From Escherichia coli (GTDB taxonomy: Bacteria > Pseudomonadota > Gammaproteobacteria > Enterobacterales > Enterobacteriaceae): a stretch of DNA of 64,000 nucleotides. How positions within the stretch are numbered: position 1 is the stretch's first letter; the number at the start of each line of letters is the position of its first letter. The stretch is taken from NCBI RefSeq assembly GCF_024223415.1, contig NZ_CP100500.1. One strand, given 5' to 3'. Below the pieces are notes generated by a model. The model saw only the letters and a list, made by a program, of their open reading frames with translations, did not search any database and was not told the DNA's origin. Shown one piece after another: positions 2,269-10,226 of this stretch. The position numbers were made by a program, and so were the translations under genes.

Positions 2269-3990
2269 ATGCGCGCTTTGCTACCCTATCTGGCACTGTA
2301 TAAACGTCATAAATGGATGTTAAGTCTTGGTATTGTGCTGGCAATTGTGACGCTGCTCGCCAGTATCGGTCTGTTGACACTTTCCGGCTGGTTCCTCTCG
2401 GCCTCAGCGGTTGCGGGGGTTGCCGGACTGTACAGCTTCAACTATATGCTACCCGCTGCGGGCGTGCGTGGTGCAGCAATCACCCGTACTGCCGGGCGTT
2501 ATTTTGAACGTCTGGTAAGTCACGACGCGACTTTCCGCGTGTTGCAGCATCTGCGCATTTACACCTTCAGCAAATTGTTGCCCCTCTCCCCTGCCGGACT
2601 GGCGCGCTATCGTCAGGGCGAATTGCTCAACCGCGTGGTGGCGGATGTTGATACGCTCGATCATCTTTACCTGCGCGTTATCTCGCCGCTGGTGGGCGCT
2701 TTTGTGGTGATTATGGTGGTGACAATCGGGTTAAGTTTCCTTGATTTCACCCTCGCCTTTACGCTGGGCGGCATTATGTTACTGACGCTTTTCCTGATGC
2801 CACCGCTGTTTTATCGTGCGGGAAAAAGCACCGGGCAAAATCTGACTCATCTTCGCGGACAGTATCGCCAACAACTGACGGCCTGGCTGCAAGGGCAAGC
2901 TGAGCTGACCATTTTTGGTGCCAGCGATCGTTATCGCACGCAACTAGAGAATACAGAAATTCAATGGCTGGAAGCGCAACGCCGTCAATCTGAACTGACC
3001 GCATTGTCGCAAGCGATAATGCTGCTCATTGGCGCGTTAGCGGTGATCCTGATGCTGTGGATGGCGTCTGGCGGCGTTGGCGGCAATGCTCAACCCGGCG
3101 CGTTAATTGCCCTGTTTGTCTTCTGCGCGTTAGCCGCGTTTGAAGCACTGGCACCAGTAACGGGTGCATTTCAGCATCTGGGGCAAGTCATTGCCTCTGC
3201 CGTTCGGATCACTGATTTAACGGATCAAAAACCGGAGGTCACCTTCCCTGATACCCAAACTCGTGTTGCCGATCGCGTTTCGCTGACGTTACGGGATGTT
3301 CAGTTCACTTATCCGGAGCAATCTCAACAGGCACTTAAAGGGATTTCTCTTCAGGTAAACGCCGGGGAACATATAGCGATTCTCGGGCGAACCGGATGCG
3401 GCAAATCAACACTGTTACAACTGCTGACCCGCGCATGGGACCCGCAACAGGGCGAGATTTTGCTTAACGATAGCCCCATATCCAGCCTGAATGAAGCGGC
3501 TCTACGACAGACCATCAGCGTTGTTCCTCAGCGAGTGCATCTGTTTAGCGCCACGCTGCGTGATAATCTGTTACTCGCCTCGCCTGGCAGTAGTGATGAG
3601 GCTCTGTCGGAGATCTTGCGTCGCGTTGGTCTGGAGAAGCTGCTCGAGGATGCAGGTCTCAACAGTTGGTTAGGTGAAGGCGGACGCCAGCTCTCCGGTG
3701 GTGAACTGCGCCGTCTGGCTATCGCCCGTGCGCTGTTACATGATGCGCCACTGGTGTTGCTGGATGAACCTACCGAAGGCTTAGATGCCACAACCGAAAG
3801 CCAGATCCTTGAATTGCTTGCAGAAATGATGCGTGAGAAAACGGTGTTAATGGTCACCCATCGACTTCGCGGACTCTCTCGTTTCCAACAAATAATAGTG
3901 ATGGACAACGGGCAAATTATTGAGCAAGGTACTCACGCAGAACTGCTTGCCAGACAGGGGCGTTATTACCAGTTCAAGCAGGGTTTGTAA
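2269..3990 (+). CDS. cydC: ABC transporter ATP-binding/permease CydC
   Basis: 573-aa ORF, start abuts cydD stop (TAAATG); Walker A GRTGCGKST, signature LSGGELRR, Walker B LVLLDEP. Confidence 0.93.
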   Translation: MRALLPYLALYKRHKWMLSLGIVLAIVTLLASIGLLTLSGWFLSASAVAGVAGLYSFNYMLPAAGVRGAAITRTAGRYFERLVSHDATFRVLQHLRIYTFSKLLPLSPAGLARYRQGELLNRVVADVDTLDHLYLRVISPLVGAFVVIMVVTIGLSFLDFTLAFTLGGIMLLTLFLMPPLFYRAGKSTGQNLTHLRGQYRQQLTAWLQGQAELTIFGASDRYRTQLENTEIQWLEAQRRQSELTALSQAIMLLIGALAVILMLWMASGGVGGNAQPGALIALFVFCALAAFEALAPVTGAFQHLGQVIASAVRITDLTDQKPEVTFPDTQTRVADRVSLTLRDVQFTYPEQSQQALKGISLQVNAGEHIAILGRTGCGKSTLLQLLTRAWDPQQGEILLNDSPISSLNEAALRQTISVVPQRVHLFSATLRDNLLLASPGSSDEALSEILRRVGLEKLLEDAGLNSWLGEGGRQLSGGELRRLAIARALLHDAPLVLLDEPTEGLDATTESQILELLAEMMREKTVLMVTHRLRGLSRFQQIIVMDNGQIIEQGTHAELLARQGRYYQFKQGL

Positions 3991-4031
3991 GCTATTATTG
4001 AACGATCCGACTTGCGTGGAGTTTTGCGGTC

Positions 4032-4736
4032 ATGCGCCTGGTTCAGCTTTCTCGCCATTCAATAGCCTTCCCTTCCCCGGAAGGCGCATTACGTGAGCCT
4101 AACGGCCTGCTGGCACTTGGGGGCGATCTTAGCCCTGCGCGCCTGTTAATGGCTTACCAGCGTGGTATTTTTCCGTGGTTTTCTCCAGGCGACCCCATCC
4201 TCTGGTGGTCGCCAGATCCCCGCGCGGTGCTATGGCCAGAATCACTGCATATCAGCCGTAGTATGAAGCGATTTCATAAACGCTCGCCCTATCGTGTCAC
4301 GATGAATTACGCTTTTGGTCAGGTCATTGAAGGCTGTGCCAGCGATCGCGAAGAAGGAACCTGGATCACGCGTGGCGTGGTCGAAGCCTACCATCGCCTT
4401 CACGAACTCGGTCATGCCCACTCCATTGAAGTCTGGCGTGAAGATGAGCTTGTCGGCGGTATGTACGGCGTGGCCCAGGGAACGCTATTTTGTGGCGAGT
4501 CCATGTTCAGCCGGATGGAAAATGCGTCTAAAACGGCGCTTCTGGTATTCTGTGAGGAATTTATCGGTCATGGCGGTAAGCTTATCGACTGCCAGGTCCT
4601 TAACGATCACACAGCATCGCTTGGTGCCTGCGAAATTCCCCGCCGGGATTACCTTAATTATCTCAATCAAATGCGCCTCGGACGATTGCCGAATAATTTC
4701 TGGGTACCACGATGCTTGTTTTCACCACAAGAATGA
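4032..4736 (+). CDS. aat: leucyl/phenylalanyl-tRNA--protein transferase
   Basis: 234-aa ORF in the conserved cydC-aat-infA context; sequence recognisable as Aat. Confidence 0.9.
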
Positions 4737-5017
4737 ATGTTTTCGGCACATTTCTCCCCAGAGTGTTATAATTGCGGTCGCAGAGTTGGTTACGCTCATT
4801 ACCCCGCTGCCGATAAGGAATTTTTCGCGTCAGGTAACGCCCATCGTTTATCTCACCGCTCCCTTATACGTTGCGCTTTTGGTGCGGCTTAGCCGTGTGT
4901 TTTCGGAGTAATGTGCCGAACCTGTTTGTTGCGATTTAGCGCGCAAATCTTTACTTATTTACAGAACTTCGGCATTATCTTGCCGGTTCAAATTACGGTA
5001 GTGATACCCCAGAGGAT

Positions 5018-5239
<222 letters not shown>

Positions 5240-5281
5240 TTGTTTTACCGCCTGATGGGCGAAGAGAAAGAACGAGTAAAA

Positions 5282-5303
5282 GGTCGGTTTAACCGGCCTT
5301 TTT
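5282..5303 (+). terminator. rho-independent terminator downstream of infA
   Basis: GGTCGG / CCGGCC stem with TTTAA loop followed by TTTTT. Confidence 0.6.
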
Positions 5304-5492
5304 ATTTTGTGATATGTAGGAAGTACTTTGGAAGTATAAGTCCATAACTTGTCTCGATGTAGATATACTGCACAACTTGTTTACAGTATGAGCAAACAAT
5401 AATTATCATTAAAATTCTTCTTGACCGTTTTACTCCAACTCCCTATAGTAGCGCCCCGTTGCCCCCCATGAGGTCAGGCAACAAAACAATTT

Positions 5493-5580
5493 GGTGAGGT
5501 GTCCGAGTGGCTGAAGGAGCACGCCTGGAAAGTGTGTATACGGCAACGTATCGGGGGTTCGAATCCCCCCCTCACCGCCA
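5493..5580 (+). tRNA. serW: tRNA-Ser (anticodon GGA), long variable arm
   Basis: GGTGAGG...CCTCACC acceptor stem, anticodon loop CCTGGAAAG, GGTTCGAATCC T-arm, encoded CCA end; 88 nt; lies after infA as in the conserved core order. Confidence 0.95.
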
Positions 5581-5588
5581 GATATTGA

Positions 5589-5620
5589 GCGCATGTTATT
5601 GTTTAACATGCGCTTTTTTT
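5589..5620 (+). terminator. rho-independent terminator downstream of tRNA-Ser
   Basis: Perfect 10-bp stem GCGCATGTTA / TAACATGCGC with TTGTT loop followed by seven T. Confidence 0.8.
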
Positions 5621-5731
5621 ATTTTTCCTTCCAGGCAGTATGCCACAGGGTATGCCATCTGAAACCGGTTTGTATGAGCCTCGATCACATCTTATCAGAC
5701 AATTTCCGATCTTTGAGCATACAGGGCAAAG

Positions 5732-6574
5732 CTATACTGCCAGCATGTCAGGATAGTGTCTGACGATAATATCATTCAGTCTGTCAACCAGTTCCGGTTT
5801 CCTGAACGTGATATGCGCGGAGCCTTTCCTGAAGTATCTGATGCTGAACATCTCATCCTCATAGCATGCTTCACCCTGAACGGACCGGATGTGCTCATCC
5901 AGACGAATGAGGATATTGTCCCGGTCAGTGGGTATGGGTTTACCGCTGAACAGATACAGTATCCTTTCCAGGTCGGCAAGCCGCCCGGCCTGCGGACCAT
6001 GGTTCAGACCAAATACCCACCAGTCCCATTTCACCAGGTTGTTGAGGATAATCTTACTGCCGAATTTACAGGGTGACCCGCTGTTGTGCGTCCGGCTCAG
6101 TCCTCTGAAGAGGTTGATGACGCCCCGTTCAGCCATTTCATCCCTGTTACGGTGCAGTTGTTCAGACGTACTCAGGATATTCGCTTCGCTGATTTCCGGA
6201 AAATTATCCTCCTCCAGTGAACGGTACCATTCATCACGCGCCTGTGCATCCATCAGACTCAGCATCCCGGAGCGTTGCATCAGGTCACGCCAGATTTCAC
6301 GGTCAAGGTTCCGGGTGATGGCTTTCATTGCGGTTTCCGGTTTTTCCATCAGCCAGCAGCCACAGCGAAAATCCTGTTTCACGGCCCAGTCCCGGGCCGT
6401 TTTACCTCCGATGCTTTCTGTCATTACTGAGATTTCTGCCAGTTGCCGGATAAGCCTTTCGGTTTGTTGCAGTGCTTCATTCCGTACCGTCACAACGTGC
6501 CGGATACTGGTTGAGCAGATAACGTCCGTATGTCCGTTAAGCGTTTCCGGACGGGAGACTGTGATATCAGACAT
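5732..6574 (-). CDS. hypothetical protein, island-borne (possibly a DUF4942-type protein that often follows cbtA/yeeW modules)
   Basis: 280-aa ORF, first gene after the serW terminator, same strand as the downstream end of the toxin-antitoxin module; family assignment is from memory only. Confidence 0.55.
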   Translation of the reverse strand: MSDITVSRPETLNGHTDVICSTSIRHVVTVRNEALQQTERLIRQLAEISVMTESIGGKTARDWAVKQDFRCGCWLMEKPETAMKAITRNLDREIWRDLMQRSGMLSLMDAQARDEWYRSLEEDNFPEISEANILSTSEQLHRNRDEMAERGVINLFRGLSRTHNSGSPCKFGSKIILNNLVKWDWWVFGLNHGPQAGRLADLERILYLFSGKPIPTDRDNILIRLDEHIRSVQGEACYEDEMFSIRYFRKGSAHITFRKPELVDRLNDIIVRHYPDMLAV

Positions 6575-6887
6575 AACCGATATTCCTTTTTGCAGATAAA
6601 TGAAAACGCCAGCCGTATTCGGACTGGCGTCAGTGGAATGAATCGTGGTGAGTGAGATGATGAGTGAGACTCACAGGTTCTGGTGCTGAAGCTGCAGCTG
6701 GCGCAGGGTGCGGATATCCTCCCTGGCCTGTTCGATACAGGGCAACAGTGCTGCCGAATCCGTTTTATCCTCATCGTTGTCGAAGATAATGCAGGAGCCG
6801 CAGTCGATATTGTCCTGCAGCCACGCAATCAGAATATCCGGTGCTGTTTCTGTGGTTAATGATTTCATACGGTGTCTTTTGTCCCGG

Positions 6888-7376
6888 TTACCAGTCGAAA
6901 GTGGGAAAACCCGGCAGACATTCAGCGCCGGCATCCAGATGAATGAGACTGACGCCATAACGCCGGATGAGAGTGACAACCAGACGACGAAACGTTTTTG
7001 ACAGACCCAGGCGTTTAAGCCGCAGAGCCGGGTACGACCACGCATCAGTACGTAACAGATATCCGCTGCCTGTAAAATGAATCCATTCTGATTCGCCGTT
7101 GTCATTCGTCTGATGCGACAGCGAGTACAGCCAGGCATTGTCCTGCTCCGTGATATGTGCGGTACTGCAGCGTATGCCGGTAAGGGCCGCAAATGGTGGC
7201 ATGCAGTCTGCTGAGGTCCGGTCAGATTCATCAGCAACACGAAGGGAACAGCCATTATCGCAGACCACGTTAATCAGTTCAGCGAGATTAACACCATCGA
7301 CGTCAGCGACAATGCGCCCCATGTTCAGTGCCTGTACGTTAACGCTGTCGGCTTCCAGTGTCAGGGACAGTTTCAT
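6888..7376 (-). CDS. YeeW-like protein (DUF5983-type) downstream of cbtA
   Basis: 162-aa ORF whose start overlaps the cbtA stop by 4 nt (ATGA coupling); position matches yeeW in CP4-44-type modules. Confidence 0.6.
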
Positions 7377-7750
7377 GGTTTCACCTCACAGTGTTTACCC
7401 AGGGTGATGTTGTTCACCATTCTGTAGTGGCTGCGGGTCATCAGGCCGGTCGCCCGGCGGGCCCGGAGAATATCAATGCTGCTGATTAACTGCGATGAAG
7501 CTCCTGCGCTGAATCCCGGCTGGTCGGTACGCACCAGCGCGTATTTTTCCACAAGAAAGTTCACCGCATCACACAGTGAAATACCCGCCTCAATATGCTG
7601 CTCAATCACACGTTCATCGGCGAACGGTGTGTCATTCAGCGTGAGGCCGTAGTGCTGGTCCAGCAGCCGGGTGAGCAGTGTCTGCCAGATTTCAACCGGA
7701 GACGGGCAGCGCGATGTTGCCCGTACGTGTGTGTCGGGGAATGTTTTCAT
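7373..7750 (-). CDS. cbtA: type IV toxin-antitoxin system toxin CbtA (YeeV/YkfI/YpjF family)
   Basis: Internal Met of the 7373..7876 ORF gives [80 protein letters not shown]..., closely matching CbtA. Confidence 0.85.
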
Positions 7751-7808
7751 CTTAAGTACTCTGTAACAGGTGATGATAAAGAAGTGCTGTCCGGGGTTAT
7801 GCGGTGGT

Positions 7809-8174
7809 TCAGGGTGTTGCCGGTGTCGGATAAATGGCGATATACACGTAACCACAACTGCCGAGGGTGTCGGCATCGCAGGTCAGCCCTTTCGCATACA
7901 GTGTCACGGTATGCTGATGGCGGGGACTGAGTTCACCGCTGGTGAGCATGAGTTCCAGCTGTTTCATCAGCAGCGGAAAGGCCTGGTCCAGGTGGTACGC
8001 ATCTGCGTCGCTGAACCGGCCTCTGATACCGGCGCGGTCTGCAAGGTAATGCAGGCGGTTACCCTCCTGCACCAGACGGGCACCAAAACAGGGTGTCACG
8101 GTGCAGGGCAGTCCCCACTAGGGGCGGTCGCTGTTGTCGTCAGGATGCGTTGTCCCGGTGAGTGTGTCTGACAT
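7809..8174 (-). pseudogene. cbeA: cbeA (yeeU-family antitoxin) interrupted by an in-frame amber stop at codon 19
   Basis: Minus-strand translation from ATG at 8174 reads MSDTLTGTTHPDDNSDRP-TAG-WGLPCTVTPCFGARLVQEGNRLHYLADRAGIRG...; the stop is the reverse complement of 8118-8120; the rest of the frame is intact (track ORF 7809..8099 from a GTG). Confidence 0.8.
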
Positions 8175-8224
8175 GATAAAGTCCTCACTGATAATCGGTT
8201 AAGAATGGTTTTAACAATGACGGG

Positions 8225-8869
8225 TCAGCCGGTGCGCAGACCGGCTTCGGTGAAGGTGTATCCGTTGATGAGAAGGGCCTCATCCACGGCGTCGTCTGAG
8301 GTCAGCCAGTCGTACTCGTTTTCCAGTTGACTGTATAACCAGAAGGCAAGGTCCCGCAGGGCGTCACAGACAACGGTTTCCGCGCTGGCTGTCATTGCCT
8401 GTCCGGTCGGACTGTCCCGGGTGACGGTGATATCCATGCTGTACGGATGGCAGTAGTGTCCCCGGTGGCGGATTTCAGCCTGAAGCTGCCGGAAGTTACG
8501 CTTCTGCACCGCCTGCAGGGCATCCGCGATACGATGAAGCTCACGGTCCTGCGGGGCATATTCCCTGATTTTCCGGGGTGCCGCTGGCTGCCAGCGCCAG
8601 CGTCCTTCAAAACAGGCTCCGTCCCCCTGGCTGCAGAATCCGCTGAACCAGATGCACGGCTCTTCCATAAACCTGCCGTTGCTGAGCCGGATAACACGCT
8701 GGCGGAGGGCAATCCCGACAATCTCACAGACCGTCCTGAAGTCCTCATACACGTTTTCATACCAGTTGCTGTCAGCATGATGCTGACGGTACCATTCACG
8801 GGCCTTCTCCCGTGCTGTGGCGGAAAGTTCATCCGGCGTATACACGGTGGTGATGATAATTCTGCTCAT
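8225..8869 (-). CDS. hypothetical protein inserted between the DUF987 gene and cbeA
   Basis: 214 aa from MSRIIITTVYTPDELS; GGAG Shine-Dalgarno 8 nt upstream; tightly packed between the yeeT-like stop (8886) and the cbeA start (8174); no family recognised. Confidence 0.6.
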   Translation of the reverse strand: MSRIIITTVYTPDELSATAREKAREWYRQHHADSNWYENVYEDFRTVCEIVGIALRQRVIRLSNGRFMEEPCIWFSGFCSQGDGACFEGRWRWQPAAPRKIREYAPQDRELHRIADALQAVQKRNFRQLQAEIRHRGHYCHPYSMDITVTRDSPTGQAMTASAETVVCDALRDLAFWLYSQLENEYDWLTSDDAVDEALLINGYTFTEAGLRTG

Positions 8870-8885
8870 CCGCATCTCCACTGAC

Positions 8886-9107
8886 TCAGTTCAGGGTGAC
8901 GCTCATCAGCCGGACATACGGGCCAAAACTGTCCTTCCGGCGTTCGGCAAACACGGCAAGCACACCGGGGATATCCTGCACTTCACGACCGGTATACGCT
9001 TCAGCACTGCCGTGCCAGCGGTATTTACCGGTACAGAACGGAAAAAGACGGGATGACGGATACTGACGGTGAACGCGCATGGCTTCACCACGGGTGATGA
9101 TTTTCAT
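8886..9107 (-). CDS. DUF987 family protein (YeeT/YpjJ-like)
   Basis: 73-aa ORF MKIITRGEAMRVHRQYPSSRLFPFCTGKYRWHGSAEAYTGREVQDIPGVLAVFAERRKDSFGPYVRLMSVTLN. Confidence 0.85.
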   Translation of the reverse strand: MKIITRGEAMRVHRQYPSSRLFPFCTGKYRWHGSAEAYTGREVQDIPGVLAVFAERRKDSFGPYVRLMSVTLN

Positions 9108-9196
9108 GAGAACAGTCCTCCTGAATGTGAAAGTGAGAAACAGCTGAGAAAGAGAAACTGAAGTGACAATATGAAGGTGGCTGTGACGGTGACGGA

Positions 9197-9673
9197 TTAA
9201 AGCAGACCGTGTTCCGCAAAGGAGAACACCCGGCTGCCACCGACTATCAGATGGTCCGGTACCCGGATATCCACCAGGGCCAGTGCCTGTACCAGACGTT
9301 CAGTGATAAGGCGGTCTGCCTTACCGGGTGTGACCTCACCGGACGGATGATTGTGCGCCAGCACCACGGCAGCGGCATTGTGGTACAGGGCGCGTTTAAC
9401 CACCTCCCGGGGATGCACTTCCGTGCGGTTGATGGTACCGGTGAAGAGGGTTTCACCGGCAATCAGCTGATTCTGGTTGTTCAGGTACAGCACCCGGAAC
9501 TCTTCCCGCTCCAGTCCCGCCATGTGCAGAATCAGCCATTCCCGTGCCGCATGCGTGGAGGTGAAGGCCACGCCGGGTTCATGAAGATGGCGGTCCAGGG
9601 TTTTCAGGGCCCGCTGAATGAGGCTGCGCTCGCCGGGCGTCATCGCGCCGGGCAGAAAGGAAATCTGTTGCAT
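9197..9673 (-). CDS. RadC-like JAB-domain protein (YeeS/YfjY family)
   Basis: MQQISFLPGAMTPGERSLIQRALKTLDRHLHEPGVAFTS...HNHPSGEVTPGKADRLITERL; JAMM-type HNHPSG motif. Confidence 0.85.
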   Translation of the reverse strand: MQQISFLPGAMTPGERSLIQRALKTLDRHLHEPGVAFTSTHAAREWLILHMAGLEREEFRVLYLNNQNQLIAGETLFTGTINRTEVHPREVVKRALYHNAAAVVLAHNHPSGEVTPGKADRLITERLVQALALVDIRVPDHLIVGGSRVFSFAEHGLL

Positions 9674-9684
9674 AACCTCACCCC

Positions 9685-10158
9685 TCAGTCGATGATGCGC
9701 ATAATGGCGCTGCATTCCGGATGCTGCAGGGCGTAATCCCGCAGCCGGTAATAATGGACCGTCATGGCATAATGCTCCGTACGGCAGGCGTGATGACTGT
9801 AGGCCATCAGGCAGGCGGCAATGCCGGCGGCTTCAGGGCTCATTTCCGCGCGGTTGCCGTTCATGGTGTTAAACAGTGCCCATGTTTCGTCATCATCGTC
9901 ACCCGGTTCGGGAGCCATAAATGCGCCGCCGTTGTTCAGGGTGTACATATTCCAGATACCCCCACTGTAGTCTTCACACAGACGGTCCATCCAGCCGAAG
10001 ATTCGGGGCTCAAGGGTCACCCACTGCGGAATGAGGCCAAAGTGCTGCGGCCAGAAGCTGATGCGCTGTTCGTCAGGCACTGGGCTGGCAACCAGCTGAG
10101 GTGGATTATTCCCGGATGCAGTGGTTGCGGAAACAGAGTCATGCGAAACCGTTTTCAT
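9685..10158 (-). CDS. antirestriction protein (KlcA/ArdB-like, YfjX family)
   Basis: 157-aa ORF with conserved PDEQRISFWPQHFGLIPQWVTLEPRIFGWMDRLCEDYSGGIWNMYTLNNGGAFMAPEP. Confidence 0.85.
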   Translation of the reverse strand: MKTVSHDSVSATTASGNNPPQLVASPVPDEQRISFWPQHFGLIPQWVTLEPRIFGWMDRLCEDYSGGIWNMYTLNNGGAFMAPEPGDDDDETWALFNTMNGNRAEMSPEAAGIAACLMAYSHHACRTEHYAMTVHYYRLRDYALQHPECSAIMRIID

Positions 10159-10160
10159 AA

Positions 10161-10226
10161 GTGAAATCCTTAAGTGAATAAGTGAACAAGTGAATTAAGG
10201 AAATAAGTGAATGAATAAGTGAATAA
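10161..10226. repeat. short tandem GTGAAYAA (TTCAC on the coding strand) repeat tract in the 5' leader of the antirestriction gene
   Basis: Six or seven copies of GTGAA(T/C)AA within 66 bp directly upstream of the start codon at 10158. Confidence 0.6.

Follow-up and report, generated by a model that had tools for sequence, protein, structure and literature searches.

A naturally occurring amber codon in a cbeA-family antitoxin gene beside an intact cbtA toxin gene of Escherichia coli: a probable recent loss-of-function allele of Dcm-site origin

The window, by which we mean the whole 64-kb stretch of DNA analysed, carries a CP4-44-like genomic island at tRNA-Ser(GGA), beside infA, aat and cydCD of the E. 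coli chromosome, and several E. coli genomes match the core flank of this island with 100% identity. Read on the minus strand from the island interior towards the tRNA, its genes follow in the order DUF932, antirestriction, radC, DUF987/yeeT, a gene for a protein of 214 residues, the cbeA frame, cbtA, DUF5983, DUF957 and DUF4942 (Table 1). The antitoxin frame lies directly upstream of the cbtA-family toxin gene on the same strand, with a spacer of 58 nt between them. An NCBIfam search of the small island proteins gave no match except that of RadC.

Table 1. Coordinates of the features in the window (a minus or plus sign gives the strand)
Feature	Position	Strand	Remarks
tRNA-Ser(GGA)	5493..5580	+	ARAGORN; island insertion site adjoining infA
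DUF4942 gene	5732-6574	-	
DUF957 gene	6671-6868	-	
DUF5983 (yeeW-like) gene	6888..7376	-	Relatives' annotation; Pfam PF19419 in contig L025; ATG overlaps the cbtA stop (ATGA)
cbtA-family toxin gene	7373..7750	-	Intact, 125 residues; uninterrupted frame
cbeA/yeeU-family type IV antitoxin frame	7809..8174	-	121 codons plus stop, broken at codon 19; from translation
Possible restart open reading frame	7809..8099	-	96 aa from GTG (codon 26), from the list of open reading frames; without the WWGLPCT segment
Amber codon	8118..8120	-	TAG replacing Trp19 (TGG); derived base 8119
Former Dcm site	8118..8122	+	CCAGG to CTAGG, from sequence context; inner (methylated) C8119 to T
Residual 5' frame	8121..8174	-	18-residue peptide (MSDTLTGTTHPDDNSDRP), from translation; behind the native ribosome-binding site
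214-aa gene	8225..8869	-	Between yeeT (DUF987) and the cbeA frame
DUF987 (yeeT-like) gene	8886..9107	-	
radC/yeeS-like gene	9197..9673	-	NCBIfam TIGR00608, above cut-off
Antirestriction gene	9685-10158	-	
DUF932 gene	10263-11081	-	

The closest known module is that of CP4-44, encoding CbtA/CbeA (YeeV/YeeU), which together with the K-12 paralogues YkfI/YafW and YpjF/YfjZ is of the same type IV toxin-antitoxin kind as the pair in the window. The CP4-44 module shares with the window the order DUF932, antirestriction, radC, DUF987, antitoxin, toxin and DUF5983, as well as the Pfam families PF06154 and PF06755 of the pair itself. It differs in three respects: codon 19 of the window antitoxin is a stop, the insertion site is tRNA-Ser by infA in place of the CP4-44 site, and the 214-aa gene found here between DUF987 and the antitoxin is absent from CP4-44 of K-12.

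The toxin gene is, as the preliminary description had it, full length, with an unbroken frame of 125 residues and no base that differs from the intact gene of its closest relatives. An identical gene in contig L025 carries the PF06755 CbtA_toxin family. The encoded protein shares 83% identity with CbtA from the CP4-44 locus of strain JE86-ST05, and it has Arg14 and Cys15 where the CP4-44-locus CbtA that we compared has Ser14 and Arg15. Its sequence retains F65, a residue of CbtA that is required for FtsZ binding (PMC5624674).

The 214-aa gene had been regarded as an insertion next to the pair, and this view does not survive comparison, since every close relative with an intact cbeA carries the gene at this place, and it is hence not specific to this strain. 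It is also present at this position in another, paralogous island (contig L010) and is a regular component of this island subtype. Its product matches no Pfam or NCBIfam family, and its annotations vary between hypothetical, DUF8835 and “antitoxin of toxin-antitoxin stability system”. Nothing ties it to compensation of the cbeA amber. The gene carries a change private to the window, A213T, at 8233.

The minus-strand frame of the antitoxin (8174..7809) conceptually encodes MSDTLTGTTHPDDNSDRP, then a stop, then WGLPCTVTPCFGARLVQEGN and so forth up to a terminal ATP and the final stop; the residues that follow the interruption are WGLPCTV. An in-frame amber in the antitoxin at a position where homologues have tryptophan had been claimed beforehand, and both parts are borne out: translation places TAG at 8120-8118 with 8119 as its middle base, and W19 is tryptophan in 24 of the 26 other family members aligned. 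In the same alignment of 27 members W20 is near-invariant and G21 and L22 are invariant, and the solved YeeU structures 2INW and 2H28 carry RPWWGLPCTV at the segment of the amber codon. With TGG put back, residues 18-117 give a match to Pfam PF06154 (CbeA_antitoxin) with E=1.3e-54, and the antitoxin matches those two PDB structures with E about 1e-75. The stop at codon 19 corresponds to position 2 of the PF06154 model, so that no uninterrupted frame spans the whole domain, and the frame as sequenced is a pseudogene or truncated allele of the CbeA/YeeU/YfjZ family. The native start is preceded, 7 nt upstream of the ATG, by GAGGA (duplex -6.5 kcal/mol), a good ribosome-binding site, because of which ribosomes should still load there and then terminate at codon 19. 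The native start would now yield just an 18-residue peptide outside the conserved domain, the Pfam match beginning only at residue 18.

When 5,426 complete RefSeq E. coli genomes were searched with an 802-bp query, a perfect match over the 802 bp was found in none of them (0/5,426), and in the five best the alignment differs by a single base, TGG against the TAG of the window. TGG likewise stands at this codon in seven of seven near-identical related islands and in contig L026, whose island lies at the same infA site. (L026 had been considered as a third carrier of TAG, but what looked like a stop was a mere truncation at the contig end.) The five best-matching genomes all encode an intact 121-aa antitoxin, WP_032289760.1, together with a toxin, WP_000847116.1, identical to that of the window. 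Since TGG is found in the seven islands and in L026, and since W19, W20, G21 and L22 are conserved in the family, we consider TAG to be derived and private to the window.

The same TAG is present in a second assembly. Contig UDHK01000029.1 (GCA_900482235.1) is 100% identical to positions 3809-12111 of the window (8.3 kb), amber codon included. The contig spans 43.6 kb, which would place its end near window position 15401, at the start of an ISEc8 copy through which the window sequence continues; because it breaks where the window runs on, the window must come from a different and more contiguous assembly, even though both assemblies could stem from one strain or even one read set. The shortened product is also found in public databases (WP_143360777.1, UTJ29125.1).

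On the plus strand the change at 8119 is C to T, which on the coding strand turned TGG of Trp19 into TAG. B strains aside, most E. coli carry the Dcm methylase, and the amber would have arisen by a single event, the deamination of 5-methylcytosine at the methylated inner C of CCAGG. We infer this origin from the context of the site, and it is in keeping with the spectrum of other changes in the island. Over 29.8 kb, with a recombination patch within DUF932 left out, the window has eight private substitutions relative to the four to seven near-identical islands compared, and two of these (8119 and 24264) change the inner C of CCAGG to T. Such positions make up 0.38% of the sequence, and the probability of at least two of eight falling there is about 4e-4. 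Deamination of 5-methylcytosine at Dcm sites is the classic amber hotspot of lacI (Coulondre et al. 1978, reviewed in PMC12606429). The lacI hotspots described by Coulondre, Miller, Farabaugh and Gilbert (1978) likewise arise by C to T at the second C of CCAGG, giving TAG. They differ from the present case in that CAG becomes TAG there, whereas in the window the opposite strand carries the amber (TGG to TAG), and in that they were recovered in a selected mutant collection, whereas the cbeA amber is a natural polymorphism.

Nonsense alleles of this kind are not confined to the window. A metagenome scan with a 26-mer containing the TAG returned three contigs, all of them other paralogues with an amber at W19 that share about 89-91% identity with the window gene; the backgrounds include the archetypal CP4-44 cbeA, adjoining yeeA. 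The corresponding scan of viral contigs gave no TAG match as against 11 wild-type matches. Gene conversion of the window gene by a TAG-bearing paralogue was set aside, since the tract would have to fit in the roughly 16 nt common to both backgrounds. At CP4-44 cbeA we counted alleles in complete genomes by exact 80-mer queries. W19 TAG was found in 30 exact-match records, with roughly 2,300 records (mostly wild type) at one mismatch from that query; W20 TAG, the non-Dcm control, was found in 24, Q64 TAG, the sole other possible Dcm-derived amber of the gene, in 2, and W19 TGA gave no exact match among the complete genomes. In RefSeq the W19-amber CP4-44 gene is represented not as a pseudogene but as a 101-aa protein starting from CTG codon 22, WP_044863316.1, and this shortened CP4-44-type product occurs on at least 1000 contigs. 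Early nonsense alleles in this antitoxin family are accordingly a recurrent natural polymorphism; our literature searches returned no paper describing natural cbeA/yeeU nonsense alleles.

The W19-amber allele of CP4-44 cbeA has the same TGG to TAG change at codon 19, within CCTGG. It belongs to a different paralogue at another locus, with about 90% nucleotide identity to the window gene, and it is widespread, as the genome and contig counts given above show, whereas the allele of the window is confined to one strain or lineage. We had also entertained the Dcm hotspot alone as the reason why early ambers predominate, and dropped this idea in view of the 24 genomes with the non-Dcm W20 TAG and the two with Q64 TAG; the hotspot explains the origin of the W19 amber but not by itself why early stops are common. 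W19 and W20 are the only tryptophan codons of the gene and among the few codons that are one transition away from a stop, and for that reason the prominence of early stops has a simple mutational explanation. As to the toxin, cbtA is intact in three of three W19-amber CP4-44 genomes checked, frameshifted in three of three W20-amber genomes, and frameshifted together with DUF5983 in a Q64-amber genome. The frameshifted cbtA of the W20 lineage is compatible with some cost of a toxin that is retained without its antitoxin.

How an antitoxin can be lost beside an intact toxin is perhaps best approached from K-12, in which a triple deletion of the antitoxin genes yafW, yfjZ and cbeA affects neither growth nor viability, in which the toxin and antitoxin genes of the CbtA/CbeA family are weakly transcribed and neither product autoregulates the operon, and in which YafW, YfjZ and CbeA each neutralise non-cognate toxins (PMC5371832). 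Moreover, the K-12 CbeA acts indirectly, by stabilising and bundling FtsZ and MreB polymers, without binding the toxin (PMC5624674). If the toxin is weakly expressed, and if the antitoxin neither autoregulates nor acts directly on it, loss of the antitoxin would not unleash the toxin, and cross-neutralising paralogous antitoxins elsewhere in the genome would probably add a margin of safety. In this strain, weak expression of the toxin and the existence of such paralogues are presumed. The 802-bp query finds a median of 3 places per E. coli genome and up to 11, and 2 to 11 in the closest relatives of the island; no further cbeA paralogue lies within the 64-kb window. Paralogues, named in the preliminary description as one possible source of compensation, are common in E. 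coli; but given the normal growth of the K-12 triple antitoxin mutant and the action of these antitoxins on non-cognate toxins, viability does not call for any compensation. The Keio single mutants and the yafW yfjZ cbeA triple mutant (Wen et al. 2017) resemble the present case in that the toxin is kept without antitoxin and without growth defect; they differ in being in-frame laboratory deletions in K-12, whereas the window holds a natural nonsense allele on which effects of polarity or restart are possible.

Building on the observed mutation and its context, its derived and private state, its recurrence elsewhere and the intactness of the toxin gene, we consider it probable that the cbeA of the window is a real and evolutionarily recent loss-of-function allele, or at most a hypomorphic one, that it originated at a Dcm site and that it is tolerated. 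Several alternatives, some of which bear on the consequences of the stop and others on its very existence, have to be weighed against this reading.

Perceivably, the amber could act on the toxin as well, if the mRNA left untranslated beyond it invited Rho-dependent termination and so lowered toxin expression, disarming the toxin too. The distance from the stop to the ATG of cbtA is 367 nt and includes a C-rich, G-poor stretch (7842-7765; C 0.38, G 0.13), the ribosome-binding site of cbtA is itself weak (-2.4 kcal/mol), and no convincing minus-strand promoter was found inside cbeA, all of which would favour such an effect. However, these are inferences from base composition, from which Rho sites are not reliably predictable, and a restart at codon 26 would put ribosomes back on the mRNA. 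Deletion of the antitoxin in K-12 left toxin mRNA levels unchanged (PMC5371832), although the deletions in question were in frame. As an explanation in its own right we regard polarity as having perhaps one chance in several; as a contributing mechanism it is compatible with loss of function of the antitoxin.

Somewhat less likely still is that the locus remains a working pair, in which reinitiation at the GTG of codon 26 gives a 96-aa CbeA that still neutralises CbtA. An in-frame GTG from which translation may restart does exist, as had been proposed, but the distance of eight codons given for it needs correction, as it is codon 26, seven past the stop, with 18 nt between the two. In E. coli lacI and in rIIB of phage T4, ribosomes are known to restart beyond early nonsense codons, and reinitiation at this GTG (8099-8097) is, as judged from the sequence, plausible. 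The codon is preceded by a Shine-Dalgarno-like GGGGA whose calculated strength is -5.5 kcal/mol, against -6.5 kcal/mol for the native site; it lies 12 nt upstream, however, a spacing that is long and suboptimal. Residues 1-17 are outside the Pfam domain and would not be missed from it, and the alignment of the natural paralogue YfjZ, which is without the first 14 residues, with CbeA does not begin until residue 19. On the other hand, the 96-aa product would be devoid of W20, G21 and L22 and would leave positions 1 to 9 of the Pfam model uncovered, whereas YfjZ retains WGL. The AlphaFold2 model of the restored CbeA (pLDDT 58.9, with residues 1-27 below 50) is too weak to judge residues 19-26. 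As regards records of the product, the 96-aa GTG-start form had no exact match in the contig index, in which a 100-aa CTG-start form matched contigs.

It may also be asked why the common ambers of CP4-44 cbeA, W19 and W20, precede this GTG while the Q64 amber is rare, a pattern that would be expected if restart mattered. One could go further and envisage the W19 and W20 ambers as a toggle, thrown at a Dcm hotspot, to a low-level truncated antitoxin made from GTG26, that is, a functional isoform or dosage “dimmer” selected in several E. coli lineages. The prominence of these two codons can, however, be accounted for in purely mutational terms, as set out above for the only tryptophan codons of the gene, and we deem the idea of a selected dimmer improbable.

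Doubt about the base itself carries little weight. If the true base were G, so that the codon read TGG, the stop might be the product of a systematic miscall at a methylated CCWGG; certain long-read base-callers miscall methylated Dcm motifs, both unusual C to T changes of the window fall in such motifs, and the allele is absent, in this sequence background, from the 5,426 complete RefSeq E. coli genomes. Against this, a second and differently fragmented assembly, GCA_900482235.1, has the same TAG with 100% identity over 8.3 kb, and because two assemblies agree on TAG a sequencing error is unlikely. A systematic miscall is, moreover, at odds with the fact that a mere 2 of the 142 CCWGG sites of the window differ from the relatives. 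The core flank matches other genomes with 100% identity, the shortened protein WP_143360777.1 is already in RefSeq, and the same amber stands at another locus, CP4-44 cbeA, in 30 complete genomes. We therefore hold an artefact to be very improbable.

Least probable of all, to the point that we give it barely any credence, is that the strain depends for its viability on compensation, whether from an amber-suppressor tRNA, from read-through or from the 214-aa gene as a substitute antitoxin: that gene does lie directly upstream of the cbeA frame in the same orientation and is sometimes annotated as antitoxin of a toxin-antitoxin stability system, but it has no family match and accompanies intact cbeA in all relatives, ARAGORN finds only tRNA-Ser(GGA) and thus no suppressor tRNA in the window, and UAG followed by U, as here, is an efficient terminator, which counts against read-through. 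The K-12 upstream genes, for their part, did not neutralise the toxin YkfI, and the triple antitoxin deletion is viable (PMC5371832).

Taken together, we argue that a nonsense codon in an antitoxin gene beside an intact toxin gene, paradoxical as it seems, is for the type IV CbtA/CbeA family a tolerated and recurrent natural state. The allele of the window is an ordinary nonsense allele, of recent origin, in a dispensable antitoxin gene; it is already present in public protein databases, and the archetypal locus has common alleles of the same kind. It also offers a clean natural instance of the Dcm deamination hotspot giving rise to an amber codon, and the restart product, should it prove functional, would delimit the minimal CbeA domain. 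Its main relevance is to annotation and to cautious interpretation, given that annotation pipelines mask the stop by calling shortened coding sequences from CTG (WP_044863316.1, WP_143360777.1) without a pseudogene flag.

What is essentially one island occupies several chromosomal sites among the strains compared, namely the window, the seven near-identical islands of other E. coli (L001-L007) and L026, a contig whose cbeA reads TGG where the window has the amber at codon 19. The window and L026 carry it at the tRNA-Ser adjoining infA, most of the relatives carry it at the tRNA-Ser adjoining ghrA, and in strain Br_112_kylling it adjoins glnP. Coordinates of the features discussed here are collected in the table below.

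Features of the window considered in this part
Feature	Window position	Strand
tRNA-Ser adjoining infA	5493-5580	
Window-private substitutions near the amber	6015, 8233, 9250	
ATGA overlap of cbtA stop and DUF5983 start	7373-7376	
Patch of differences in the DUF932 gene	10271-10857	
Ag43/Cah autotransporter gene	12160-15279	minus
Differing position in Ag43 codon 291	14409	
ISEc8 copy	15319-16857 and onward	
C->T change in Dcm site	24264	plus
1-nt deletion	24529	

The Ag43/Cah gene of the window is intact over 1039 codons, whereas in each of the four near-identical islands found at the tRNA-Ser on the ghrA side a CAG->TAG change turns codon 291 into an amber, and the gene is annotated there with an 'internal stop'. 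For Ag43 it is the window that has kept a functional allele, and these four relatives that have the pseudogene. Immediately past this gene lies a copy of ISEc8 (IS66 family), the position of which is where UDHK01000029.1, the short-read contig that shares the cbeA amber with the window, would be expected to end.

Within 4.8 kb of the amber the window has three further private substitutions: at 6015 the DUF4942 gene has G187V, at 8233 the 214-aa gene has A213T, and the change at 9250 is a synonymous one in radC. Their density exceeds that of the following 25 kb of island sequence (4 substitutions and the one 1-nt deletion). A second C->T change that is private to the window, CAATCCAGG to CAATCTAGG, again affects the inner C in a Dcm site (CCAGG); it is intergenic, with an ABC-transporter ATPase gene on one side and a DUF1097 gene on the other. 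The DUF932 gene has 55 clustered differences from that of strain 135, while the remaining island is nearly identical; the patch resembles a tract acquired from a paralogous island by recombination or gene conversion.

At the cbtA end of the toxin-antitoxin locus, the ATGA overlap together with a good Shine-Dalgarno match at the start of the downstream, yeeW-like DUF5983 gene (-6.9 kcal/mol) suggests that toxin and downstream gene are translationally coupled.

In other E. coli, amber alleles also occur at a paralogue locus, the cbeA of CP4-44, in a W19-amber (L011-L013) and a W20-amber lineage (L027-L029; strains L73, IMT16316 and 2D). cbtA is frameshifted in all three W20-amber genomes checked, unlike in the W19-amber lineage, where it is intact. 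For these interrupted genes RefSeq/PGAP calls not a pseudogene but a shortened 101-aa CDS starting from CTG, and since the W19 and W20 alleles share the single accession WP_044863316.1, the nonsense mutations are hidden.
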